Made by a program: the position numbers and the translations under genes. The notes under the pieces were generated by a model. That model searched no databases. It was given only the letters and a program-made list of their open reading frames with translations, and was not told the DNA's origin. Shown here piece by piece: positions 15,022 through 32,875 of a stretch of DNA of 53,633 nt; the first letter of the stretch is position 1, and each line of letters opens with the position of its first letter. The stretch comes from an uncultured Eubacteriales bacterium (GTDB lineage Bacteria > Bacillota > Clostridia > Lachnospirales > CAZTAY01): NCBI GenBank assembly GCA_964611655.1, contig CAZTAY010000002.1:1-53633 (forward strand), given 5' to 3'.

Positions 15022-15065
15022 AAAGGGGCTGTATTGCTAATTAAAAAGCAATACAGCCCCTTTTT
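15022..15065. terminator. Bidirectional intrinsic terminator
   Basis: aaaggggctgtattgct / agcaatacagccccttt between convergent genes. Confidence 0.85.
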
Positions 15066-16462
15066 CATCTAAACCTTCCCCTTTTTTTGACACTAACTAA
15101 CTGACATACAACAGCTATAACCACCCCTGCAACTAACCCTATTGCAGGCCCTGCAATGGCTAATATGCTTCCAACAATGCCTGCAACTCCACGCTCTTCA
15201 GATGTGTTTAACATACCTAGGGCAATGTAAAAACATGCAAATGACTGTATCATAAGAGTAAGTGACATGGACAGGGGCAGTATTGGCTGTATCAGAGCTA
15301 TAAGAGGCATTATAAAACAACAGACAGCCTTTGTTAGGTTAAAGGTTGCAGTACCGCCAATGATTGAATACATTGCCCTACTGCCTTTATATCGCTCAAC
15401 AACAGTGACGGTCATAGCTGACCATAAAGGTCCTGACATTGTAATCGTAGGTGCAAACAAGGATTCTGCTAAATTACGCAGTCCTGTCAAAATATTAGTT
15501 TTATTTGAGTTTATCTGGATTTTTTCGTCTTTTCTTACGGAAGCAGCATCATACAGTAGTTGTTCACCAGCAACAACATCACCAAAAGCTATTATATATG
15601 TTATGATTGCCATTGGTACTGCTTGTATCAAAATTTCTAACGGCGGAAAACCTATACCCATCATACTAAAATTATTATTCACCCATTTAAGACCCGGCAA
15701 AGGATTAAAAATAAGTCCATCCTGTAAAGAAATAACTGGCAAGGGAAGTTCGCCTGTTGCAGCGCCTACAAGGTATCCTGCAAACAGTGCGGGAACAAAA
15801 CCTGCTTTTGTTAGTATTCCCACAAGCCCTCCCGGTTCGCCTTCTTTAATCTCTCTGAAACCCTTAGAAAATAGTAAGAATAGAGACACCAAAACACCGG
15901 TTGAAAAAGCAAAAGGCATTTTTGCAAAGCCTATTCCTCCAAGTTCCCCAGTAGCAAAACCATAACGTCCGATTACTGCGCTAATACCTGCTCCCATTAA
16001 TACACCAGCTTTAATTGAGTTTGGAGTAATACGAACAAGTTTTCCGGCAAGCTTTGATATGCCAAGAACCAAGAATATAACAGCAAGCAAAAACCCCAAT
16101 GATATTAAAGCGTGGATTCTATCGGTGCCTTCAAATGCCAGCAAGAATGTAGTTATTAAAGGGATTGCAGGGGTAATCCATCCACCGATTAACACGTCTC
16201 CAAATAGCTGATGGATACAGTAAAGACATTCATGAACAATTATAATTGAAAGAGCGACTGCAAATGGCAGACCGAATATATTTTCTAAGTAAGCGGTTGC
16301 TGAAACTCCTGTAACGAAAACAAAGCAAGCCTGAATAACTTCTGGAATTTCAATTTGATAATGAATGATTGGAAAACGTAATTTATAAGCCTTTAACCCC
16401 GGAATGGGTATATAAGGCTGTTCGCCTCCTTCTTCTCTCCTTGCGGTTGGCAGACTTAGCAA
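15065..16462 (-). CDS. Uncharacterised polytopic permease (DUF3360-like, NCS2-related), paralog A
   Basis: Many TM helices; LFGDVLIGGWITPAIPL, YIIAFGD, GPLWSAM; TTG start after GAGAGGGGG. Confidence 0.8.
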   Translation of the reverse strand: MLSLPTARREEGGEQPYIPIPGLKAYKLRFPIIHYQIEIPEVIQACFVFVTGVSATAYLENIFGLPFAVALSIIIVHECLYCIHQLFGDVLIGGWITPAIPLITTFLLAFEGTDRIHALISLGFLLAVIFLVLGISKLAGKLVRITPNSIKAGVLMGAGISAVIGRYGFATGELGGIGFAKMPFAFSTGVLVSLFLLFSKGFREIKEGEPGGLVGILTKAGFVPALFAGYLVGAATGELPLPVISLQDGLIFNPLPGLKWVNNNFSMMGIGFPPLEILIQAVPMAIITYIIAFGDVVAGEQLLYDAASVRKDEKIQINSNKTNILTGLRNLAESLFAPTITMSGPLWSAMTVTVVERYKGSRAMYSIIGGTATFNLTKAVCCFIMPLIALIQPILPLSMSLTLMIQSFACFYIALGMLNTSEERGVAGIVGSILAIAGPAIGLVAGVVIAVVCQLVSVKKRGRFR

Positions 16463-20734: not shown

Positions 20735-21070
20735 ATGAAAAAATTACAATTCGATATTACAACAGAAAAGAAAGAAATTGAAATTAACGGCAAAGTTTTT
20801 CAAATCTTAAAATCTGATGCTGATATTTTAGAAAAGGCGGCAGATTTAACTGACAGCTTTGAAAATATGAAAGACAAAAATGTAAAAGAAATTGCTTCGG
20901 CAATTAAAAGTGCAATTATGTTTACAGATGAGATTTTAGGAGATGGAGCTGTTAAAGAGATTACGAATAACCAGCCAGTCGGACTTGTTAAAATGCTTCA
21001 AATAATGAATGGAGTATGTCAAGCAGTGGTGGAAGAATATGGACTTGGACTAAACGCAAAATATGAGTAA
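20735..21070 (+). CDS. Putative tail assembly chaperone (gpG-like)
   Basis: 111 aa, KEIEINGKVF, DEILGDGAVKEI; position directly before Gp15-like and tape measure genes; RBS AGGAGTG. Confidence 0.65.
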   Translation: MKKLQFDITTEKKEIEINGKVFQILKSDADILEKAADLTDSFENMKDKNVKEIASAIKSAIMFTDEILGDGAVKEITNNQPVGLVKMLQIMNGVCQAVVEEYGLGLNAKYE

Positions 21071-21674
21071 GTACGCAGCATATAAAGCTCCTGAATTCTA
21101 TCTCTGGCAGTCTGAGGACAAGTCTTTTCCAAGAGTTTTGTACATTGACTCAAAAGAATACCCCATAAATTCGGATTTCAGGGTTATGCTGAAAATATTT
21201 CATATGCTTAACGACAATGAGGTAGTGGAAAGACATAAACTTGGACTTTTATGTAAATGGTTCTACGCTGCAGAAATTCCTGATGAACCATATTCAGTAT
21301 TTACTGAATTTTCATTGGGAAAGAGTGTTGGAAAAGGTGAAGAACCCGTAAAAATGATTAAACAATTTGACTTTGACTTTGACGCAAAAGAAATATATGC
21401 AAGCTTTTTAAAAGACTATGGTTTGTCATTAGTTAAAGAACCTTTTATACATTGGTATGAATTTAGGATACTTATGCAAAATCTGTCTCCTGAATCTCCA
21501 ATAAACAGAAAAATACAGGCAAGATTTTTAGAGCTTGATGGTCTAAAGGGAAAGGCATTGTATCAAGCTCAGCAAATCAAAGAATCAGTAGCATTGCCCA
21601 TAAGCTATAGTAAGAAAGAATTACAGGAAAATTCTGATTTTGAAGATGAATGGGGAAATGTTGGTTTAATTTAA
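21063..21674 (+). CDS. Bacteriophage Gp15-like protein (tail chaperone region)
   Basis: EYPINSDFRVMLK, FDFDFDAKEIYASFLKDYGL.L..EPFIHWYEF..L..NL, typical of the Gp15 family; overlaps upstream stop by 8 bp. Confidence 0.8.
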   Translation: MSKYAAYKAPEFYLWQSEDKSFPRVLYIDSKEYPINSDFRVMLKIFHMLNDNEVVERHKLGLLCKWFYAAEIPDEPYSVFTEFSLGKSVGKGEEPVKMIKQFDFDFDAKEIYASFLKDYGLSLVKEPFIHWYEFRILMQNLSPESPINRKIQARFLELDGLKGKALYQAQQIKESVALPISYSKKELQENSDFEDEWGNVGLI

Positions 21675-21841
21675 AATTTACTAATTATAAGTCCACAAAA
21701 AAGTTTTATTAAAGTGAATTAAAAGTATAAACGGTTTGCCTTAATTGTAATAAACAAATGGCAAACCTTATGCAATTTGATTTTAATTAAAATAGAAATT
21801 AAATACAGAATAAAGTCTGTTAACTGCGAAAGGAGGTTTTT

Positions 21842-24800
21842 ATGCAGCAAGATATATTAATTACGGCAAGCTTAGATATGAATGCTTTTGAACAGGCAAT
21901 TAGCCAAATAACAGATACACTAAACTCCGCAATGAGTTCTGCTATGGTGTCTGTTTCGTCTGATTCTGAAAGAATGACATTTTCCATTGGTAAGGCATTT
22001 AGCGGACTAGGCACAAGTTTAAAAGAAAGCGAAGCTCCTTTTAATAAATTTGAGTCAATGATAGCATCAACAGGGAATAGTTTTGTAGATGCATCAGACG
22101 GAACAAAAGAGCTTGGTGGTCAGATGCAAGAGCTTAATTCAGCCCTTAATCCTCTAAGTGCCACCTTTGCAGGTCTTTTATTGACATTTGGAATGATTTC
22201 AAAAGCAAACGAAACGTTGAAAAATGAAATGTCCGGTGCATGGGACAGTATAAAAAGAAGTATAGAGAACGTGGCTTTGTCTATAAAACCAGACTCATTT
22301 AACCAAGAAATAAATATCACGGCAAAGCTTGATGTTGGAGAACTAGAACAATCTATTGTTAGTTTATCGGATACAATAAAACAGTCCATGTCAGAAAGTC
22401 AAGAGGTTGTTGCAAAAGATTCTGAGAATATGAAAGGCTCGTTAACTACAATGGCAACAAATATATTGGATGTGCCAGGCAAAATTCTTTCATTTATGGA
22501 TCAAATGGGTGAAGTAGGTGGAACAATTAGCAATTATGGTGATAATTTTATTGCTTTAGGCGATAAAATGGGCAAATTAGGGGGTCCTTTTAGCTTTCTT
22601 GGAACTATGGCTAAAGGTGCAGGAGAGGCGTTTACTGGTTTATCAGGAGGAGCATCCGGTCTCGGAGGTGCATTTTCAAGTCTTGCAACCCTTATAAATC
22701 CTGTTACATTAATTGTTGGTACTCTGGCAGTAGCTTTTGTTCATCTTTGGGAATCAAATGAGGAGTTTAGAGAAAATATTATACAGTCTTGGAATAATAT
22801 CAAGGAAGGAATCCAAAAAATTGTTACGGCAATAAGCGAAAGTCCTGCTTTTAAAGCATTTGTTGATTACATAATGAAAGTTTGGGAACCCATAGAAAGC
22901 TTTGCTAAGGTTCTGTTTGAAAATATTTTTAAGGTTGTAGAGGAGTGTGTAAACCTGGTATTGTCTTTGGTTGAAGGCGATTGGCAAGGGGTTTGGGATT
23001 CATTCTGCAACATTTTAGGCGGAATAGGCGAAATAATAGAAGCTGGCTTAAATGGGGCGATAGATTTAATTCTAGGAATCTTTGGCTTATCCAGAGACAG
23101 CATTTTTGAAATATGGAACGGAATAGTAACATTTTTCAGTGATATATGGGGAAATATAGTCACCATGGCCGGAGAAATCTGGGGAGGTATAGTAAGCTTC
23201 TTTGGTGGGCTGTGGGATGGAATAAGTACTGCTATATCAGAAGCATGGGCAGCCATAACAAGCTTTTTCAGTGAAATGTGGGGAGGAATAGTAGCCAGTG
23301 CCGGAGAAATCTGGGGAGGCATATTAGACTTTTTTGGAGGACTGTGGGATGGAATAAGCACAGCCGCAACAGAAGCATGGGCAACCATAACAAGCTTTTT
23401 CAGTGAAATGTGGGGAGGAATAATAGCAAGTGCAGAAGAAATCTGGGGAGGAATATTAGACTTCTTTGGAGGATTGTGGGATGGAATAAGCACAGCCGCA
23501 ACAGAAGCATGGACAACCATAACAAACTTCTTTAGTGGAATGTGGGGAGGAATTAGCAAAAGTGCAGAGGAGATATGGGGAGCTATTGCAAGTTTTTTCA
23601 CCGGCTTATGGGAAGGTATAAAAACAAAAGCATCAGAAATCTGGGGTAGTATATCAGGTTTTTTCACAGGGATATTTGATGGAATTAGTAGAAGTGCAAC
23701 TGAAATATGGGGCAAGATATCATCCTTCTTAAGTGGCTTGTGGGGTGGAATAAGCACAAAGGCAACTGAAATTTGGAATGGTATTAAAGAAAGCATTGAA
23801 GGTATTGTAACTAATCTAGTGAATGGGGTTATTGGTTTTTTTCAAACACTTCCAGGAGAAATTATAAAAATAGGCGGTCAAATAATTTCCGGATTATGGG
23901 AGGGGATTTCAGCTTCTATAGGCTGGTTGATGGATCAAATCAATGGGTTCTTGAACACAGTGAAAGAAATATTCTCATTCAGCTTTGAAATTAATTCTCC
24001 TTCTAAATGGGCAAGGCGAATTGGAGCTTTTGTAACAGAGGGTCTTGCAAACGGTTTAGAAGAAGAAAAAAGCTCGGTTTTAGGAGCAGCAAATGGAATT
24101 GCTGATGAAGCCCAAAGTGCATTGTTAAGATTAAAAGATATGGATTATTCTGTTGGTGATATAGAACAGCCTAGCTTAAGCGGTGGAATCAATCTTGAGG
24201 CAGAAGCTTATACACAGGAAGAGTCTCGTAGGATGAGAGAAGAGCATTACATTAAGCTTTTGGAGATGCAAGATGACTACCAAGAAGAGGTATCTGCTAA
24301 AGATGAAAAGCACATCAATAAGCTTTTAGTAAATCTAAATGAGTATCTAATGGCTGGCTTGGAGTTAAAAGCTCAAGCTTCCGCAGAAGAGTATAATCTT
24401 ATTGAGGAAACTAACGAAAGAATTTTATTTATGCTTACGGCTTATTCTAGTAGATGGTTAGATGTTGGTGTATTGTTAATGAATAAATTACTGGAAGGGC
24501 TAAGGAGCAGGATGTCAGATGTTGAGACATTAATAAGCCAGCTTAGGAGAAAACTGGACACTCTTTCTAGCCTGCAAATGAGTGCAAGTGTTCCTATGTA
24601 TGGAGAAGGGGGAATTGTTACATCTCCGCATCTTGCAATAGTAGGGGATGTACCTGAAGCAATAATTCCATTAAATCAGCTAAAAAATATTAGTGAATTA
24701 GTCTCTAGCACACCTTCCTACTCAATTCCAACAGTAAACCAGATAAGCGATAATAGGAAGGAAGTTACTGTTAATCAGTATAATACCATAAATCAACCAT

Positions 24801-24868
24801 GTAAAAGCCCTGCTGAATTAGCAAGAGAAATTAGGCATGTTGCAAAGGAATTGGCGTTCCAAGTTTAA
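21842..24868 (+). CDS. Phage tail tape measure protein
   Basis: HLWESNEEFRENI, Trp-periodic 11-residue repeats, INSPSK...G....GLANG, C-terminal GGIVTSPHLAIVGDVPEAIIPL; RBS AAAGGAGG. Confidence 0.92.
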   Translation: MQQDILITASLDMNAFEQAISQITDTLNSAMSSAMVSVSSDSERMTFSIGKAFSGLGTSLKESEAPFNKFESMIASTGNSFVDASDGTKELGGQMQELNSALNPLSATFAGLLLTFGMISKANETLKNEMSGAWDSIKRSIENVALSIKPDSFNQEINITAKLDVGELEQSIVSLSDTIKQSMSESQEVVAKDSENMKGSLTTMATNILDVPGKILSFMDQMGEVGGTISNYGDNFIALGDKMGKLGGPFSFLGTMAKGAGEAFTGLSGGASGLGGAFSSLATLINPVTLIVGTLAVAFVHLWESNEEFRENIIQSWNNIKEGIQKIVTAISESPAFKAFVDYIMKVWEPIESFAKVLFENIFKVVEECVNLVLSLVEGDWQGVWDSFCNILGGIGEIIEAGLNGAIDLILGIFGLSRDSIFEIWNGIVTFFSDIWGNIVTMAGEIWGGIVSFFGGLWDGISTAISEAWAAITSFFSEMWGGIVASAGEIWGGILDFFGGLWDGISTAATEAWATITSFFSEMWGGIIASAEEIWGGILDFFGGLWDGISTAATEAWTTITNFFSGMWGGISKSAEEIWGAIASFFTGLWEGIKTKASEIWGSISGFFTGIFDGISRSATEIWGKISSFLSGLWGGISTKATEIWNGIKESIEGIVTNLVNGVIGFFQTLPGEIIKIGGQIISGLWEGISASIGWLMDQINGFLNTVKEIFSFSFEINSPSKWARRIGAFVTEGLANGLEEEKSSVLGAANGIADEAQSALLRLKDMDYSVGDIEQPSLSGGINLEAEAYTQEESRRMREEHYIKLLEMQDDYQEEVSAKDEKHINKLLVNLNEYLMAGLELKAQASAEEYNLIEETNERILFMLTAYSSRWLDVGVLLMNKLLEGLRSRMSDVETLISQLRRKLDTLSSLQMSASVPMYGEGGIVTSPHLAIVGDVPEAIIPLNQLKNISELVSSTPSYSIPTVNQISDNRKEVTVNQYNTINQPCKSPAELAREIRHVAKELAFQV
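23171..23566 (+). repeat. Three near-identical 132-bp (44-aa) repeats within the tape measure gene
   Basis: Unit starts at 23171, 23303 and 23435; a degenerate fourth starts at 23567. Confidence 0.92.
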
Positions 24869-24906
24869 CAGATTTAATTTAATCTTGAGGGGGTTATAGG
24901 ATAGGA

Positions 24907-25977
24907 GTGAATACTGCAATGGTTCATGAAGATATTGAGATTATCGTTATAGATAAAAACTTTAAAAGGATAAAGGCTATTAAAAGTTTTAGTTCTTTGC
25001 AATGGAGGGAAAGATATTTTGGTTGCGGAGAATTTGAACTACATTGTGATAAACGTTTTTTAGAACCTCTTTTTGAAGGCGAATATATATTCAGAAAAAA
25101 TAAAAACTATATGGGGATTATAGAATATCGTTTGTTCGACAATATAGAAAATAAAGTGGTTGTTAAAGGAAGATTTTTAGAGTCAATTCTTGAGGATAGA
25201 ATTCTTAGAAGTCAGGAAACATACTCTGGAAAGGCCGAGGATATTTGCAGAAGCCTTGTAAATGACTTCTGTATTAATTCTAATCCTATTGCTAATCTGG
25301 TTTTAGGCAATTACAACGGTTTAGGCTCTGAGATGCAAATACAAAATTACGGAAGAAACATTTATGAAGTAATAACGGATATACTAAATCAGCAAGAGCT
25401 ATCCTTTCGCATAAAATATGACCTAACTTCAAAGAATTTAGCTTTTGAAGTCTTTCAAGGTTTGGATAGAACGAAAAATCAACACCAAAACGGTTGGTGC
25501 GTTTTTTCTTCATCTTTTTTCAATCTTTTAGACGAAAAATACGAAAGTTCAAACTATATTAAAAATTTTGCATATGTTATTGGTAAGGATAAAAATGACA
25601 GAGATTATGTAGTTTCCGTTGATAACTCAAATGGCGATAAGATAAGGGAAATTCAAATAGACGCTGGTGATATAAAATGGAACAGCAATCTTTCGGAAGC
25701 ACAATTCGCTAAATGTTTGCATGACAGAGGATTGGAGAAGCTGGCTGAATATAATATTGCTGAGACGGTCGAATGTGATATTGACGTATATAAAACCTCA
25801 AAATTTGAATTAGGTGACAAATGCACATACGTTCAAAAAGAAATTGATTTAATAGCAGAGGGCAGGGTAACTGAGATACTTGAGGTGATTGAAGCTAATG
25901 GTGTTAAAACAAGGGTTACCCTTGGGAAAGAACAGTTAAGTGTAGTACAAAAGATGAAAAGAGGTTCAATGGTATAG
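24907..25977 (+). CDS. Siphovirus Gp37-like (ReqiPepy6 type) tail-tip hub protein
   Basis: FSSLQWRERYFGCGEFELH, VKGRFLESILEDR, FEVFQGLDRT, KNFAYVIG, RGLEKLAEY, FELGDKCT. Confidence 0.85.
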   Translation: MNTAMVHEDIEIIVIDKNFKRIKAIKSFSSLQWRERYFGCGEFELHCDKRFLEPLFEGEYIFRKNKNYMGIIEYRLFDNIENKVVVKGRFLESILEDRILRSQETYSGKAEDICRSLVNDFCINSNPIANLVLGNYNGLGSEMQIQNYGRNIYEVITDILNQQELSFRIKYDLTSKNLAFEVFQGLDRTKNQHQNGWCVFSSSFFNLLDEKYESSNYIKNFAYVIGKDKNDRDYVVSVDNSNGDKIREIQIDAGDIKWNSNLSEAQFAKCLHDRGLEKLAEYNIAETVECDIDVYKTSKFELGDKCTYVQKEIDLIAEGRVTEILEVIEANGVKTRVTLGKEQLSVVQKMKRGSMV

Positions 25978-26253: not shown

Positions 26254-27696
26254 ATGCTTATGTTCCCAAGTGCGAGGCGTGTAGACGGTGAAGAACAACC
26301 TTTTATACCCATTCCGTTTGCAAAGTCCTTTAAAATGCGTTTCCCATTGATTCATTGGGAAATAGAAGTACCTGAACTGATACAGGCTGCGGTTGTGTTT
26401 GTAACCGGTGTATCTGCAACTGCATATTTGCAGGATATTTTTGGATTACCCTTTGCAGTTGCTCTTTCAATTGTAATTGTCCATGAATGTCTGTATTGCT
26501 TGCACCAATTGTTTGGAGATGTTTTAATAGGTGGTTGGATTACACCTGCTGTACCTTTGATTACCACATTTTTATTAACTTTTGAAGGTAATGATCGAAT
26601 CTACGCACTTATATCTATGGGATTTCTGTTGTCAATAATATTCTTTGTTCTTGGAATAACAGGACTTGCCGGGAAGCTGGTAAAGGTTACGCCAAACTCC
26701 ATAAAAGCAGGCATATTAATTGGGGCAGGCGTAAGCGCTGTTATTGGGCGTTACGGTTTTGCATCAGCAGCTGCTAACGGCGTTGGATTTGCAAAGATGC
26801 CTATAGCTTTTTCCTTTGGTGTATTAATTTCACTGTTCCTTCTTTTCTCAAAAGGTTTCAGAGAAATGAAAGAGGATGGCAATAAAGGAATTGTTAGCTT
26901 GCTGGCAAAAGCAGGCTTTGTGCCGGCTCTCGTTGTCGCATACATAATTGGAGTATTTGCCGGAGAGCTGGCAATACCTTCGATTTCTTTAAGTGAAGGA
27001 ATAATATTTAATCCAATTCCGGGGCTGGCATGGGTAAATCAAAACTTTAGTATGCTTGGTATTGGATTCCCTCCAATGGAAATTTTAATTCAAACAATTC
27101 CAATGGCTATTGTTACATATATCATAGCATTTGGAGATATCATTGCAGGGGAACAGCTTCTTAATGAGGCTGCAGTAATTCGTACTGATGAAAAAATACA
27201 GATTGACACAAATAAAACAAATATCTTAACTGGTATCCGTAACTTAATAGAAAGTCTTTTCTCTCCAACGGTTACAATGTCAGGTCCTTTATGGTCGGCA
27301 ATGACTGTTACGGTTGTGGAAAGGTACAAAGGCAGTAAATCAATGTATTCGATTATCGGAGGCGCAGGAACATTCAACCTTTTTAAAGCAATCTTTTGTT
27401 TTGTTATTCCTCTGGTAGCGTTAGTACAGCCAATTCTACCGCTTTCAATGTCACTGACCCTTATGATTCAGTCATTTGCATGTTTTTATATTGCATTTGG
27501 TATGCTTAAAACATCAGAAGAACGTGGTGTTGCAGGGGTTGTAGGCGGAATACTTGCAATAGCAGGACCTGCTGTTGGCCTTACTGCAGGAGTTGCAGTT
27601 GCAGTTGTTTGTCAGGTGCTTGGGGCAAAAAAAGTGAAACCTGAAGTTAAAATTAACGTTGAGAAGGATGAAATACTTGAAACTGAAAAAGAATAA
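26254..27696 (+). CDS. Uncharacterised polytopic permease (DUF3360-like), paralog B
   Basis: Colinear with paralog A (LFGDVLIGGWITPAVPL, GPLWSAMTVTVVERYKGS); RBS AAAGGAGG. Confidence 0.85.
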   Translation: MLMFPSARRVDGEEQPFIPIPFAKSFKMRFPLIHWEIEVPELIQAAVVFVTGVSATAYLQDIFGLPFAVALSIVIVHECLYCLHQLFGDVLIGGWITPAVPLITTFLLTFEGNDRIYALISMGFLLSIIFFVLGITGLAGKLVKVTPNSIKAGILIGAGVSAVIGRYGFASAAANGVGFAKMPIAFSFGVLISLFLLFSKGFREMKEDGNKGIVSLLAKAGFVPALVVAYIIGVFAGELAIPSISLSEGIIFNPIPGLAWVNQNFSMLGIGFPPMEILIQTIPMAIVTYIIAFGDIIAGEQLLNEAAVIRTDEKIQIDTNKTNILTGIRNLIESLFSPTVTMSGPLWSAMTVTVVERYKGSKSMYSIIGGAGTFNLFKAIFCFVIPLVALVQPILPLSMSLTLMIQSFACFYIAFGMLKTSEERGVAGVVGGILAIAGPAVGLTAGVAVAVVCQVLGAKKVKPEVKINVEKDEILETEKE

Positions 27697-27722
27697 CTAA
27701 TTTCTCTTTAGTAATCAAAAAC

Positions 27723-27756
27723 AAACACCTCCAATGTTCTGATTTGGAGGTGTTTT
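27723..27756 (+). terminator. Intrinsic terminator
   Basis: aaacacctccaa / ttggaggtgttt followed by T. Confidence 0.8.
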
Positions 27757-27962
27757 ATATGGAAACGATAGGTAGTAATCATTGTTTTGAAAGTACTAAA
27801 GGAGTTAGGCAAGAGGTACAGAAAGGATTATTACAAAGTAAAACAATTGTAAGAATGACGGATATGCTTAAACCCTAAATGAGTTAATTATTTTAGGAAA
27901 TCATTTAGGCATAAGCTAATAATCTGACTTCAAAATACTAAAGAATATATGGAGGTAATAAT

Positions 27963-28736
27963 ATGATTTTTAATTGTAAATGCGAGGATAAAACCGAAGG
28001 TATGAATGGTTTTCTTAATGGAGAAACAAACCAGTTTCAAATAACACAGGCAGTAATTTGTTGCTGTAATGACAAAAGTGATAGTGAAGAAAAAGATAAT
28101 AATGAAGATAGTAATAATGACAATGTAGAATGCACTTATTCAGTGGATGTAACTGTTGGAATAGGTGGAGATTTTGAAACACTGCAACAGATGTATGACT
28201 GGAGTAACACAATATCAAGCTTTGTGATAAAGGTTACTTTAGTTAGTGATTTAATTAATAATACAGGACATGTTTTAATTGTTGGAAATGGAAAACGTTA
28301 CACAATAAATGGAAATGGGTATACTATCACTCAAAATGCATCTGATGCAAAATATGTGATTGTAGTAACTAATAACTCCTATCTGGAAATTGAGAGTATC
28401 ACTTTAGAAAATTTTTCAAAAGATACTGATGCTAGTTGTCTGGTTGTATCATCAATCTCTACTTGTAGGCTTATAAATAATAATTTTCCAATAACATTTA
28501 TTAATAATAATCAAGTAAGTTCTTATGCTGTGTTGTGTCAAAGAAATTCAAGACTTTTATTTGCAAAACAGGGAAATATAAATATACATAATAGCAAAAT
28601 TGGTATTTACGCATTATATAATTCAACTATAACAATGCCGGCAGGTGGTGCAGTTAATTTCAACAATGTAACTACACAATTTAGTCCTGCGAAAAATACT
28701 TTAAGTAATGGTGGTAGTTTTATTAATGTTCTATAA
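27963..28736 (+). CDS. Cys-rich N-terminus plus putative right-handed beta-helix (tail-fibre-tip-like), copy 1
   Basis: CKC...ICCC, acidic linker, VTVGIGGDFETLQQ, Asn/Ile-rich beta repeats, ends PAKNTLSNGGSFI. Confidence 0.8.
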   Translation: MIFNCKCEDKTEGMNGFLNGETNQFQITQAVICCCNDKSDSEEKDNNEDSNNDNVECTYSVDVTVGIGGDFETLQQMYDWSNTISSFVIKVTLVSDLINNTGHVLIVGNGKRYTINGNGYTITQNASDAKYVIVVTNNSYLEIESITLENFSKDTDASCLVVSSISTCRLINNNFPITFINNNQVSSYAVLCQRNSRLLFAKQGNINIHNSKIGIYALYNSTITMPAGGAVNFNNVTTQFSPAKNTLSNGGSFINVL

Positions 28737-28920
28737 TGGTTATGTTAGTAGATTAATTCTCTTTCCCTTGCTACAAAAGTAATCTAGTACACAGGACAAA
28801 CTAAAACTGTAAGAATATATGATTTGCTTATGACTTAATTAGCTTATTGAATTAGGAAATATTACATAGGAGAAAGTAAATAACAGGATTTGAAATACTA
28901 AAAAAATATGGAGGTTATAT

Positions 28921-29697
28921 ATGGATTTTAAATGTATATGCAACGATCAAAACGTAGATATGGAAGGTTGTTTTAATGGGGGAACAAACCAATTTCAAAT
29001 TTCAAAAGCAGTCATTTGTTGCTGTAATGATAAATATGATTTTGAAGATAAAGATGATAATGAAGAAAATAAAGATGATAATGAAAATAAAAAATGCACT
29101 TATTCAGTAGATGTAACAGTGGGGACTGGTGGAGATTTTGAAACATTGCAACAGATGTATGACTGGAGTAATACTATATCAAGTTATCAAATAACTGTTA
29201 CATTAGTAAGTGATTTAACAAATGATGTAGGAGTTGCCTTATATGTTAGTAATGGAAAACGTTACATTTTAAATGGAAATGGGCATACTATCACTCAGAA
29301 TGCATCTGACACAAATTACGCAATTGCGGTATATAATTACACCTATTTATCTTTAGAGAATATAACAATTAAGAATATGTCAAATATCACTAGCGCAATT
29401 TGTCTGTTCGTATCAACTAACGCTACTTGCCGGATTTTTAATGAGACATACCCTATAACATTTATAAATAACAATCAAACATATTCTATTGCTATAACTG
29501 GTCAAAGAAATGCAAACATTTTATTTGGCCATCTGGGAACTATAAATATGCTAAATTGCAAAACAGGTGTTTACGCAATATATAATTCAAGAATAACTAT
29601 GTCAACAGGTGGGACGATTAATTTCAACAATGTTACTACACAATATATTCCTGCTAAAAATACATTAAGCAGTGATGGAAGTTTTATTTATGCATAG
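28921..29697 (+). CDS. Cys-rich plus beta-helix protein, copy 2
   Basis: Paralog of copy 1; GDFETLQQMYDWSNTISS identical. Confidence 0.8.
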   Translation: MDFKCICNDQNVDMEGCFNGGTNQFQISKAVICCCNDKYDFEDKDDNEENKDDNENKKCTYSVDVTVGTGGDFETLQQMYDWSNTISSYQITVTLVSDLTNDVGVALYVSNGKRYILNGNGHTITQNASDTNYAIAVYNYTYLSLENITIKNMSNITSAICLFVSTNATCRIFNETYPITFINNNQTYSIAITGQRNANILFGHLGTINMLNCKTGVYAIYNSRITMSTGGTINFNNVTTQYIPAKNTLSSDGSFIYA

Positions 29698-29901
29698 TCT
29701 ACTACTATAATTGTTTGAAATGTAACAATGTAAGGAGTTAATTCTTTATTACTTGATTAAAAGTTTATGTACATATCAAAAAACAAACTACAATTGTAAG
29801 AATATCGATTTGCTTATATCTTCAGTTAGTTTATTAAAAAACATAGGCATAAGCAAATAAACCTGACTTCAAAAATACTAAAGAATATATGGAGGTAATA
29901 T

Positions 29902-30672
29902 ATGATTTTTAATTGTAAATGTGACGATAAAACCAAAGGTATTGACGGTTGTATAAATGGGGAAACAAACCAGTTTCAAATTGCAAAAGCAATAATTTGT
30001 TGCTCTAAAAATAAATGCCATAATAAAGCTGACAATGACAATGATAATGAAAATAACACATGCACTTGCACTTATTCAGTTGCTGTAACTGTTGGGACAG
30101 CTGGAGATTTTGAAACACTTCAACAGATGTATGACTGGAGTAATACTATATCAAGTTATGAAATAAAGGTTACTTTAGTTAGTGATTTAACAAATGATGA
30201 AGGACATGTTTTATTTGTAATGAATGGAAAACGTTACATATTAAATGGTAATGGTTATACTATCACTCAAAACGCTACTAATGTAAATTATGCGATAGTA
30301 GTATCTACTTACACCTATTTAGCTTTGGAGAATATAACAATTAAGAACTTATCAAACACAACAAGTACTATGTGTCTGTGGGTATCAACTAATTCTATTT
30401 GCAGGATTATGAATGAAAAATATCCAATAACATTTATTAATGGCAATCAGACAAATTCTACTGCAGTATTTTGTCACAAAAATGCAAATATATTATTTGA
30501 GCATCTTGGTACCACAAATATTCAAAATTCAAGTACCGGTGTGCTTTCATCGCTAAATTCAGCAATAACAATGTCATCAGGTGTGGCACCTAATTTCACC
30601 AATGTAACTACTCAATATACCCCTGCTAAAAATACATTAAGCAGTGATGGAAGTTTTATTTTCGCACCGTAA
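29902..30672 (+). CDS. Cys-rich plus beta-helix protein, copy 3
   Basis: Paralog of copies 1 and 2. Confidence 0.8.
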   Translation: MIFNCKCDDKTKGIDGCINGETNQFQIAKAIICCSKNKCHNKADNDNDNENNTCTCTYSVAVTVGTAGDFETLQQMYDWSNTISSYEIKVTLVSDLTNDEGHVLFVMNGKRYILNGNGYTITQNATNVNYAIVVSTYTYLALENITIKNLSNTTSTMCLWVSTNSICRIMNEKYPITFINGNQTNSTAVFCHKNANILFEHLGTTNIQNSSTGVLSSLNSAITMSSGVAPNFTNVTTQYTPAKNTLSSDGSFIFAP

Positions 30673-30742
30673 TGATCTTTGAGGATTGATGCTCTATCCT
30701 TAACGCTGATATTAATTTAAAAAAACAAGAACCTATTCACTC

Positions 30743-30782
30743 AAACACACCTCCGTTCGGATAATGGAGGTGTGTTTTTTTA
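30743..30782 (+). terminator. Intrinsic terminator closing the triplet
   Basis: aaacacacctcc / ggaggtgtgttt plus T tract. Confidence 0.8.
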
Positions 30783-30812
30783 ATTAAGTGTTTTTATAAA
30801 AACATACGTAAT

Positions 30813-31463
30813 ATGAAGTATAACAATAAACAAGGTTTGCAAACCTGTTTAACAGGGGTTGGTTTATTACAAAACATAATTCACTATATTCCCAAAGAAA
30901 AAAAGGTGGTGTTAAGCTTGCAAGATGATGTTTTAATAAAAAGACTTCTCGAAGGAGAACAAGAAGCATTTGCTTTTATGATTGACAAATACAGCAAACT
31001 GTTGTGGTTAGTGGTTGGGGGAGTTATAGGGAATATTGGAACAAAGGAAGATATTGAAGAGTGTATAAGTGATGTTTATGTTCAGGTTTGGAAAAACCCT
31101 AGGGCTTTTAACAATCAAAAAGGAACTCTAAAAACCTATTTAGCAATTATAGCAAAGAGTAAGGCTCTTGATAAATACAGGAAACTGTCTAAATTAAAGG
31201 TGATCGAGATTGATGAGGCTATTACTGCACCTGACGATGATTTGCTTGACTACATAGTTGAGAAAGAAAAGAGCAAGGCTCTTTATTCAGTATTAGAGAC
31301 ATTAAAAGAACCAGATAAAGAAATACTAATTCGCCGCTACTTTTTTGATGAAAAGCCGTCAAGAATTGCTGAAAAAATTTCGATTCCAGTTAAGGAAGTG
31401 GAAAACAGATTATATAAAAGCAAGCTAAAATTAAGAAAAATATTAAGTAGCAGGGAGGTTTAG
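30813..31463 (+). CDS. ECF sigma-70 factor (true start probably ~30907-30917)
   Basis: LIKRLLEGEQEAF, EDIEECISDVYVQVW, LKTYLAIIAKSKALD, region 4 IRRYFFDEKPSRIAEK. Confidence 0.9.
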   Translation: MKYNNKQGLQTCLTGVGLLQNIIHYIPKEKKVVLSLQDDVLIKRLLEGEQEAFAFMIDKYSKLLWLVVGGVIGNIGTKEDIEECISDVYVQVWKNPRAFNNQKGTLKTYLAIIAKSKALDKYRKLSKLKVIEIDEAITAPDDDLLDYIVEKEKSKALYSVLETLKEPDKEILIRRYFFDEKPSRIAEKISIPVKEVENRLYKSKLKLRKILSSREV

Positions 31464-31465
31464 AG

Positions 31466-32875
31466 GTGGATAATAAAAATTTAATTTCAGAGCTTTCAGA
31501 TGAACAAATTGATGCATTGTTAACCTATGTACCACTGTTTGAGGAGCAGAATAAAGAAAATATTAAAGCTATTGCATTTGAAAAAATTAGTAATAATAGA
31601 GCAAATAATAAAAGATTTTCTTATAAAAAATCCGCATTGTCTGCACTTATTGCGGTTGCAATATTAGTTTCAAGTAGTTTGGTTGTAGCTGCTGCGTTAG
31701 GTGTTGATTTAGGACAAATTTTTAATTCGTTTTTTAATCCAGAAGTAGCGAATGTTATAGATGTAGAACAGATTGCAGAGCAAGAAGGAATTGAAATTAA
31801 ACTAATTTCAGCATATTCAGATGGAAGTCAAGCATATGCGATGCTTGAGATGAAAGATAGAAAAGGAAACAGACTATCTGATAACATGAAACTACTTTTT
31901 AGAAATAGTAACTACAATGCTTATTTATGCACGCCTATAGCCTATGATAAAGTAGAAAACAAGGCTGTGTTTGGAATTAAAATAATATGTCATCAGGAAA
32001 TTGAAGTAGGGGATTTAGTGCCTTTTAACGTAGAAAAAGTTTTATTAGATGTAGATGCTATTCAAGCAAGACCTATAAATTTTCCTTTATACAGTTTGGC
32101 GTTAGAAAAAGAAGTGATTAGCTATCAGCAGTGGGAGGAAGCGGCTTCTGACGGTGATATAGAATCAACAGGAGCAATAGCTGTTAGCGATGAAGTAAAT
32201 ATAGAAGAAATAGGCTTTTTGAAATTGGATGAAATTACTGCAACTCTACCGGGGGTTGATTGGGCTGTTGTTACTAACATAGGTTATGTTGATGGGTTGC
32301 TGCATATTCAATTAAAACGCACTGATGCTTATAACTTTGATTATAATTTTGGTTCTCTATTATTGCAGGACAGTTCTGGTGGAGAGGTTACACCTTTGCT
32401 AGATGTTGAAAAAGGTAATTATCAGGAGCTTGTGTTTAAAGTAGGAAGTATTGAAAAGCTCAAAAATATGAAGCTAACTAATACTGGATTGAACGCAAAA
32501 ACCGTTATATCAGGGCCGTGGAATCTGGACTTCACAATCAAGTCACAAGCAACCAAAAAATTCTTAACTATAAACTTGATAGATTCTCCTTATTTCAAAC
32601 AGCTTGATATAGAATGTTCACCTATGGCAACTTATATCAGGTTTTATGCTAAAGAGCAAACGGGCGAGCTTGAAGATGTAATCAAAATGGGCGATTATGT
32701 GGGGGCCTTTGATGAACCTTACCTAACTTTAAAAGATGGCTCTGAGATAAAGTTGTTGGTGGAGTCAAATATGTTTGATAATGTTGGCGGAACTGCGGAT
32801 TATAACAGTCCATACTTCCAACTCTCTGAACTAAAATCAATTACAGTTTGTGGAGTAGACTATAATTTTGAATAA
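31466..32875 (+). CDS. Anti-sigma factor (DUF4179-like)
   Basis: Directly follows the ECF sigma; single TM helix then EQEGIEIKLISAYSDG beta-rich extracellular domain. Confidence 0.75.
   Translation: MDNKNLISELSDEQIDALLTYVPLFEEQNKENIKAIAFEKISNNRANNKRFSYKKSALSALIAVAILVSSSLVVAAALGVDLGQIFNSFFNPEVANVIDVEQIAEQEGIEIKLISAYSDGSQAYAMLEMKDRKGNRLSDNMKLLFRNSNYNAYLCTPIAYDKVENKAVFGIKIICHQEIEVGDLVPFNVEKVLLDVDAIQARPINFPLYSLALEKEVISYQQWEEAASDGDIESTGAIAVSDEVNIEEIGFLKLDEITATLPGVDWAVVTNIGYVDGLLHIQLKRTDAYNFDYNFGSLLLQDSSGGEVTPLLDVEKGNYQELVFKVGSIEKLKNMKLTNTGLNAKTVISGPWNLDFTIKSQATKKFLTINLIDSPYFKQLDIECSPMATYIRFYAKEQTGELEDVIKMGDYVGAFDEPYLTLKDGSEIKLLVESNMFDNVGGTADYNSPYFQLSELKSITVCGVDYNFE

Follow-up and report, generated by a model that had tools for sequence, protein, structure and literature searches.

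The window analyzed here is a 53.6-kb contig from the 2.56-Mb genome of an uncultured Eubacteriales bacterium. It contains a tandem triplet of + strand genes whose products join a Cys-rich N-terminal module to a C-terminal domain related by sequence to the tips of phage tail fibers. Gene 1 (27963–28736; 257 residues) was delimited from the open reading frame list, the alignment of the copies, and a family alignment (A5). It encodes the Cys-rich module at residues 1–37, a linker rich in Asp, Asn, Glu, and Lys at residues 38–56, and a predicted beta-helix domain at residues 57–257 (nucleotides 28131–28733). The same architecture is found in gene 2 (28921–29697; 258 residues; domain at residues 59–258, nucleotides 29095–29694) and in gene 3 (29902–30672; 256 residues; domain at residues 56–256, nucleotides 30067–30669), the latter having additional Cys residues in its linker (C39, C54, and C56). 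The motif C5-x-C7, followed by I-C-C-(C) at residues 32–35, is present in all three proteins, as is the acidic, Asn-rich linker, which is 21–24 residues in length. The C-terminal domain of approximately 200 residues opens in each case with V-T-V-G-x-x-G-D-F-E-T-L-Q-Q-M-Y-D-W and ends with P-A-K-N-T-L-S-x-x-G-S-F-I. Pairwise identity among the copies is 61–66% for protein and 74–78% for DNA. No signal peptide or transmembrane segment was found in the triplet proteins, the maximum Kyte-Doolittle mean over 19 residues being 1.24 or less. A preliminary description of this DNA had reported three tandem proteins of this type, lacking both a signal peptide and a transmembrane helix, exactly as we find here.

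Divergence among the copies is distributed unevenly along the C-terminal domain. The three-way identity is 85% at residues 59–98, 30–60% at residues 99–238, and 70% at residues 239–258. The ratio of nonsynonymous to synonymous substitution (dN/dS), calculated pairwise along the domain, is 0.08–0.17 at the start, 0.29–0.60 in the middle, and 0.19–0.33 at the end. Both measures agree with the earlier proposal that the ends are conserved while the inner rungs vary. The region-wise dN/dS analysis upholds the greater variability of the middle, but no region is reliably above 1 in this comparison of three sequences, and approximately 19 synonymous sites underlie the sole estimate that exceeds 1. The middle rungs are under relaxed constraint, positive selection not being demonstrated with three sequences. 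The overall pairwise dN/dS of the triplet is 0.38–0.43, with a dS of approximately 0.53–0.60; such a ratio at a dS of about 0.55 marks them as old duplicates whose coding capacity has been retained.

Structure prediction supports a beta-helical fold for the C-terminal domain. An AlphaFold run with the three paralogues only resulted in a poor model (predicted local distance difference test, pLDDT, of 57), and its fold search was non-significant. This run is superseded by an AlphaFold2 model based on the 11-sequence alignment A5, in which residues 60–258 of gene 2 are modeled at a pLDDT of approximately 90 as a capping helix followed by a stack of about 20 short strands with three-strand periodicity. 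A Foldseek search against PDB returned pectin methylesterases, family-3 (PL3) pectate lyases, the adenovirus LH3 beta-helix, and phage tailspikes; these matches are weak (E-values of 7e-3 or worse, TM-scores of 0.3–0.45), yet uniform in kind, nearly all being beta-helices. Against BFVD the best match was a 236-residue protein of Campylobacter phage Los1 (E-value of 3.6e-6), with further matches to Siphoviridae tail proteins, to Campylobacter phage RBP1 and RBP2 (F374 RBP2), and to Bacillus phage tail fibers. One family member also matched the Pfam family Beta_helix (PF13229) at 4.5e-4. The monomer model and the Foldseek searches together yielded the beta-helix that had been proposed for this domain, which is predicted to be a right-handed parallel beta-helix of eight or so rungs. 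It has in common with the HK620 and CBA120 tailspikes, pectin methylesterases, and PL3 lyases both this fold and the N-terminal capping helix, but the triplet helix is much shorter (approximately 200 residues), has no sequence-level match to these proteins, and lacks conserved catalytic residues.

Sequence searches indicate that the triplet proteins belong to a very small family. Pfam, NCBIfam, and PDB-sequence searches with the proteins and their profile gave no usable match; a 21-bit NCBIfam match to the methyltransferase MnmM was rejected, as it involves only the G-x-G-G-D cap motif and the predicted fold is a beta-helix. A word-index search of 5.8 billion proteins recovered only the three triplet proteins themselves. 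An exhaustive hidden Markov model search of 1.84 billion cluster representatives detected six relatives outside the window, an indexed search with the family alignment added a seventh (P0010), and an eighth is the partial tandem neighbor of another relative (P0009). This amounts to approximately eight relatives in 15 billion proteins, and to about a dozen sequences in all. A weak match on contig C77 proved to be a surface protein with CARDB-like repeats, encoded next to an ABC transporter, and was not retained as a relative. Searches of IMG/VR, of JGI metagenome contigs, and of 60 genomes from this order yielded no family member, and among the GTDB representative genomes the family occurs only in a metagenome-assembled genome (MAG) of Anaerovorax. 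The source genome is the sole representative of its taxonomic family among the relatives compared. The family is rare and phage-borne, carried no database name or annotation before, and is annotated here for the first time.

Two of the relatives, P0008 (873 residues) and P0007 (445 residues), are tail fibers of the uncultured Anaerovorax MAG GCA_964461765.1. Each has an N-terminal fiber domain, collagen-like Gly-x-y repeats, and a C-terminal beta-helix as in the triplet, and their C-terminal ends match the triplet domain at E-values of 1e-7 to 1e-10 in the search of 1.84 billion representatives. The domain is the same from cap to C-terminus at 24–28% identity, and the fiber tips share with the triplet the signature F-x-N-V-T-T-Q-Y-x-P-x-K-N-T-L/V-x-x-x-x-S-F/Y-I; the host is likewise of the Clostridia and the tail module is of the Gp15 type. 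P0008 occupies the fiber position of an intact prophage that comprises, in this order, minor capsid genes, Gp15, a tape measure gene, three baseplate-like genes, the fiber gene, a 125-residue gene, a lysin gene, and a holin gene. P0007 (1445–2782 of L006, contig CAYWVS010000043.1) lies in a second apparent prophage stump of the same MAG, flanked by a head-tail-connector-like gene (read by eye) and a 122-residue gene, with host genes following directly. In the Anaerovorax proteins the domain ends a long fiber with a virion-attachment domain and Gly-x-y repeats, whereas in the triplet a Cys-rich stub stands in place of the fiber. Judged by these sequence similarities, the triplet domain is truly homologous to phage tail-fiber tips.

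The relatives P0004, P0005, P0006, P0009, and P0010 are small proteins of 233–246 residues, each with a Cys/His-rich segment (such as MGNKCCNHDHHGVNVCVHVDGCC...CTCVP) N-terminal to the beta-helix. Phage and window proteins can be aligned in their N-terminal modules along the pattern M-x-x-N/K-C-(x)-C ... G-x-N/D-x-C ... C-C ... C-T-(C), those of the window having an insert of 11 residues and an acidic linker of greater length. A word search with residues 1–50 of P0004 for the Cys-rich module on other proteins returned P0004 alone. The back-translated pattern GVNVCVHV had no match in viral contigs, and its 58 metagenome matches were all dismissed as GT-repeat or out-of-context chance matches. 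The contigs that encode the small homologues are short, and every interpretable one is phage-like. The gene for P0009 comes directly after the C-terminal end of a Phage_holin_1 gene, with a second, diverged paralogue in tandem on its 3' side (L011); that for P0004 is flanked by an XkdX-like gene and by an Amidase_2 endolysin gene, with a beta-propeller repeat protein encoded upstream; and that for P0006 lies immediately 5' of a small terminase gene. The homologues are thus located in or next to tail or lysis modules, and the window triplet merely adjoins a four-gene prophage stump. In the lytic cassette of the Bacillus subtilis element PBSX, the slot between the XkdX-like gene and the lysis genes is taken by XepA, a protein without a signal peptide and of unclear function. 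XepA is a positional analogue of P0004, but is unrelated to it in sequence and fold and is not a beta-helix. The P0009 fragment (L011/L012) derives from sequencing runs SRR29713752 and SRR29713736, which a data paper on plateau brown frog metagenomes lists (PMC12259888). This origin suggests that at least part of the family resides in animal-gut anaerobes.

A tblastn search with gene 2 against 50,697 GenBank phage records detected only Campylobacter phages of the genus Fletchervirus, with 27–29% identity over residues 61–223 (E-value of 7e-4). In some of these records the matched gene carries the name receptor binding protein 4 (rbp4). An hhalign comparison of the family with RBP4 of phage F356 gave a probability of 96.3% and an E-value of 2e-9; the comparison with RBP2 revealed only the cap motif in common with the family. 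At the level of sequence, homology to virion fibers or receptor-binding proteins (RBPs) is therefore found with P0007, P0008, and F356 RBP4. According to two reports, both of which cite Sorensen et al. 2021, phages of the genus Fletchervirus carry genes for as many as four RBPs, located between that for an endonuclease and that for the antiholin, RBP1 contains a pectin-lyase domain and recognizes the O-methyl phosphoramidate (MeOPN) capsule modification, and multiple RBPs let the phage use alternative receptors (PMC8713573, PMC10877375).

The similarity of the triplet to RBP1–RBP4 extends beyond sequence. Both are small stand-alone proteins of predicted pectin-lyase fold (F356 RBP4 has 234 residues) encoded in tandem arrays, with three copies in the window, at least two after the holin in L011, and four in F356, where the gene order is rbp1-rbp2-rbp3-rbp4-chaperone-antiholin-holin; holin adjacency is common to Fletchervirus and P0009. 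RBP4 and the family share T-I/V-G-x-G-G-x-F-x-x-L as a motif of the N-terminal cap, and their C-terminal ends are similar. Tandem small beta-helix RBPs beside lysis genes are an established arrangement, and the triplet and the P0009 pair look like its Firmicutes counterpart. There are also clear differences. The Fletchervirus RBPs have an ordinary N-terminus of 20–25 residues without a Cys cluster or acidic linker, unlike the triplet proteins, and the Fletchervirus phages are lytic myoviruses of a Gram-negative host. Fletchervirus exhibits polyG phase variation, whereas a single G5 run is present at 27700–30800 of the window, and the Fletchervirus array is followed by a DUF4376 chaperone gene, whereas the triplet is followed by genes for an extracytoplasmic function (ECF) sigma factor and its anti-sigma factor, without a DUF4376 chaperone. 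The resemblance to the C-terminal, pectin-lyase-like tips of phage tail fibers, noted in the preliminary description, is supported by the ends of P0007 and P0008, the match to RBP4, and the beta-helix model; the closest homologues are all phage-linked rather than ordinary enzymes with no phage connection.

Taken together, these data favor, with a probability of roughly 0.55, the interpretation that the triplet represents diverged tandem copies of a rare phage gene for a stand-alone receptor-binding (tailspike-like) protein, this probability applying to the interpretation with glycan binding, docking, and specificities included. In such a protein, a fiber tip would be mounted on a Cys(/His)-rich N-terminal module of 35–60 residues in place of a shaft. 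Because the shaft provides both oligomerization and docking, the stub that replaces it may serve for oligomerization (trimerization), docking, or both, and could be stapled by metal ions or disulfides via its CxC, HxH, and CC motifs on alternating positions. Phage fibers and spikes have metal-lined three-fold axes, which these alternating motifs recall. The beta-helix would bind a cell-envelope glycan of the host, with the conserved N-cap and C-terminal strand having a structural role and the variable rungs carrying specificity. The three copies may then have three specificities, as in the RBP1–RBP4 array.

Several observations weigh against a receptor-binding function on a virion. Residues 1–59 of gene 2, which make up the N-terminal module, fall below a pLDDT of 50 in the AlphaFold2 run and have no confident model, and searches detected no relatives of the Cys-rich module on other heads, which leaves docking as a purely inferred role. 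The window retains no virion on which the proteins could dock, the prophage being a four-gene stump, and this stump is no more than a distant relative of the Anaerovorax prophage and is unlike the triplet in composition. P0006 adjoins a small terminase gene, outside any tail module. The long private upstream regions of the triplet genes, along with hairpins before every phage homologue, would suit independently regulated cargo better than late-operon structural genes. In the Fletchervirus reports consulted, a receptor is stated for RBP1 only, and RBP4 is a name given by its authors (PMC8713573, PMC10877375).

The fold and the lysis-module location of the homologues also need to be considered from the standpoint of enzymatic activity. 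The pectin-lyase fold is a classical fold of depolymerases and esterases, the top PDB matches are pectin methylesterases and PL3 lyases, and homologues lie beside holin and endolysin genes; on this basis the proteins could be soluble depolymerases or deacylating enzymes of a lysis cassette, which would aid the escape of virions through secondary cell-wall polymers or capsule, or their later penetration of these. The invariant positions of the family are G, F, N, V, P, T, and I, corresponding to cap and Asn-ladder residues, with no invariant D, E, K, R, or H. The lack of any invariant charged residue argues, if weakly, for a binder rather than a depolymerase. No CAZy-type Pfam family was matched, and the PDB fold matches are, as noted above, weak. 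We consider an enzymatic role quite unlikely.

The regions preceding the triplet genes have an unusual organization. Each gene has a GGAGG ribosome-binding site 7 nucleotides 5' of its ATG and an upstream spacer of its own (185–230 nucleotides), the final 110 or so nucleotides of which are conserved. The conserved elements occur in the order TGTAAGAAT-N4-5-GAT(T/A)TGCTTA, an imperfect hairpin (TTTGCTTAT...ATAAGCAAA), and then AAATACTAAAGAATATATGGAGGT, which contains the ribosome-binding site. The upstream block of gene 1 is at 27845–27962 (+ strand) and reads TGTAAGAAT-N5-GATATGCTTA, imperfect hairpin, AAATACTAAAGAATATATGGAGGT; the same elements are found in the blocks of gene 2 (28805–28920, +) and gene 3 (29792–29901, +). 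The composite motif has only three sites in the 2.56-Mb genome, all before triplet genes, and since it is found nowhere else no regulon can be deduced from it. Covariation in the shared leader hairpin is weak across the three sequences, and an Rfam search of the conserved leaders found no family. A sigma-70 scan detected no + strand promoter upstream of the triplet genes; TGTAAGAAT could be a TG-extended -10 element followed by a 5'-terminal stabilizing hairpin, and is noted as a candidate. The 5' border of the cassette is marked by a terminator-like hairpin with a T-run after the permease gene (27723–27757, +), which was read by eye and is absent from the terminator scan listing owing to its 12-nucleotide loop. 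The 3' border is marked by a strong intrinsic terminator with a 15-bp stem and T-run after gene 3 (30743–30782, +). The G+C content at third codon positions (GC3) is 0.17–0.21 in the triplet genes and 0.23–0.35 in all neighbors, including the prophage remnant.

We also observed a GC-rich, terminator-like hairpin 20–80 nucleotides 5' of the start codon in every phage-borne small homologue (L005, 619–846; L009, 79–266; L010, 1–171; L011, 138–200 and 923–995). Expression of the small phage homologues may depend on read-through or antitermination. The triplet copies have a hairpin at the matching place, but without a T-run.

This organization raises the possibility that the triplet is lysogenic-conversion cargo (a 'moron'), expressed in the lysogen from promoters of its own or set free upon lysis, whose products bind or mask the envelope glycan used by related fibers. 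Superinfecting phages would then be excluded, or progeny phages kept from adsorbing to debris. The low GC3, the private conserved block before each gene, and the terminators at both borders are what a self-contained, AT-rich cassette would have, but no promoter of sigma-70 type was identified upstream on the + strand, and the end of the prophage is no longer recognizable. The homologues are found at the lysis or cargo end of phage genomes with terminators before them, consistent with cargo. The triplet genes have also remained intact despite the decay of the prophage; the four prophage tail genes are intact too, however, and intactness therefore need not mean selection. The products, having no signal peptide, lipobox, or transmembrane segment, have no means of reaching the surface of a Gram-positive cell that is alive. 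We regard cargo of this kind as unlikely.

The preliminary description had gone further in suggesting that phage receptor-binding domains were grafted onto a spore anchor, the Cys-rich terminus being taken as a feature of coat and exosporium proteins. The N-terminus of such spore-surface proteins would be cross-linked into the coat or exosporium, so that a lectin of phage origin is presented at the spore surface. Genes matching Spo0A_C, SpoIVA, and small acid-soluble spore proteins above the family cut-offs are present in the genome, from which the host is probably a spore former. The absence of a signal peptide would fit deposition by the mother cell, and the N-terminus is indeed Cys-rich. 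BclA-type exosporium proteins provide a precedent for fiber-like spore appendages. The triplet proteins resemble CotY/ExsY, CdeC/CdeM, and BclA-type proteins in their Cys-richness, lack of a signal peptide, and probable spore-former host, and resemble BclA in joining an anchor to a fiber-like protein.

The comparison with coat and exosporium proteins does not extend further. Neither the Cys-rich module nor the triplet proteins matched any coat or exosporium family in Pfam or NCBIfam at E-values up to 10, and there is no similarity to proteins of the CotY/ExsY/CdeC type or to another family in these databases. The Cys-rich module is common to phage-encoded homologues in lysis cassettes, where it occurs next to holin, endolysin, and small terminase genes. 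As small phage-borne homologues carry it, the stub is part of the phage protein rather than a host graft. The family is also absent from the 60 genomes of the same order. The upstream regions were read by eye for sigma-E, sigma-K, sigma-G, and ECF motifs, and no clear element emerged: no CATA-type -10 with correct -35 spacing, and no sigma-E or sigma-K element, is conserved before all three genes. The sequence CATAAGCTA fits a sigma-K -10 element by eye, but is found upstream of gene 1 only, is not kept before gene 2, and has no AC at the -35 spacing. No relevant publication emerged from a literature search on phage RBPs rich in Cys or on spore proteins of phage origin. Neither the graft nor the coat or exosporium character of the Cys-rich terminus was sustained by these results, and a spore-surface role is, in our assessment, improbable. 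It is similarly improbable that a spore-forming Clostridia lineage has kept three phage RBP genes beyond the decay of the prophage, with cytoplasmic synthesis of the products, to decorate its own spores or envelope, the stub serving as a covalent or metal-stapled anchor.

The sequences flanking the cassette bear on the origin of the triplet. A prophage tail remnant at 20735–25977 (+) comprises genes for a chaperone-like protein, Phage_Gp15, a 1008-residue tape measure, and a Sipho_Gp37 minor tail protein; the reading frames of all four are open. The 53.6-kb contig has no prophage genes for tube, head, baseplate hub, lysis, integrase, or regulator functions, and host genes flank the remnant. 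A permease gene (26254–27696, +) lies between the remnant and the triplet. Assignment of the stump to the Anaerovorax prophage lineage was rejected, as its Gp15 is 25% identical and only distant kin. Because their composition differs, the triplet need not derive from the phage of the stump, and it is most likely cargo or a relic of phage origin that adjoins a decayed prophage.

The proximity of the remnant allows for one further interpretation, in which the triplet encodes alternative tips of a domesticated tail-like particle (an F-type tailocin) built from the neighboring four-gene tail module. Intact genes for the chaperone, Gp15, the tape measure, and the Gp37-like protein are indeed present 2 kb from the triplet. 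The window, however, lacks tail tube, baseplate hub, lysis, and regulator genes; the permease gene and a terminator separate the tail module from the triplet, and the two differ in codon composition. We view this as highly improbable.

Two other features of the neighborhood were observed. The permease gene is one of two paralogous genes for multi-pass membrane proteins of 465–480 residues (15065–16462, −; 26254–27696, +) that are 75% identical, are in inverted orientation, and bracket genes for LysR, an SSF transporter, a membrane protein, and the tail stump; their only Pfam trace is a weak match to MFS_MOT1. Recombination between these inverted paralogues could have inverted or trimmed the bracketed block. 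On the 3' side of the cassette are genes for an ECF sigma factor, a DUF4179 anti-sigma factor, MerR, a CMD-family protein, and an ArsP permease. The ECF sigma factor (Sigma70_r2/r4_2) and the 469-residue anti-sigma factor are encoded at 30813–32875, directly after the cassette terminator, and no promoter motif common to these genes and the triplet was seen.

The fold and the general role proposed here are already known, the sequence family being what is unannotated and extremely rare. As far as our searches reach, the Cys-rich stub architecture is undescribed in the literature that we found. For the source genome, the analysis means that the triplet is phage-derived material, nothing found here supporting a spore structure. 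If decoration of the spore or envelope were nevertheless true, the triplet would represent domesticated phage lectins with a previously undescribed anchoring module. Receptor-binding proteins set the host range of phages, and their parts are swapped by engineers. One small family is found here in two formats, as the tip of a long fiber and as a stand-alone protein of 235–260 residues on a Cys/His-rich stub, and the stand-alone format connects phages of uncultured Clostridia with Campylobacter phages and their multi-RBP arrays. Should the stub act as a docking or trimerizing plug, it would represent a compact new mount for interchangeable heads.

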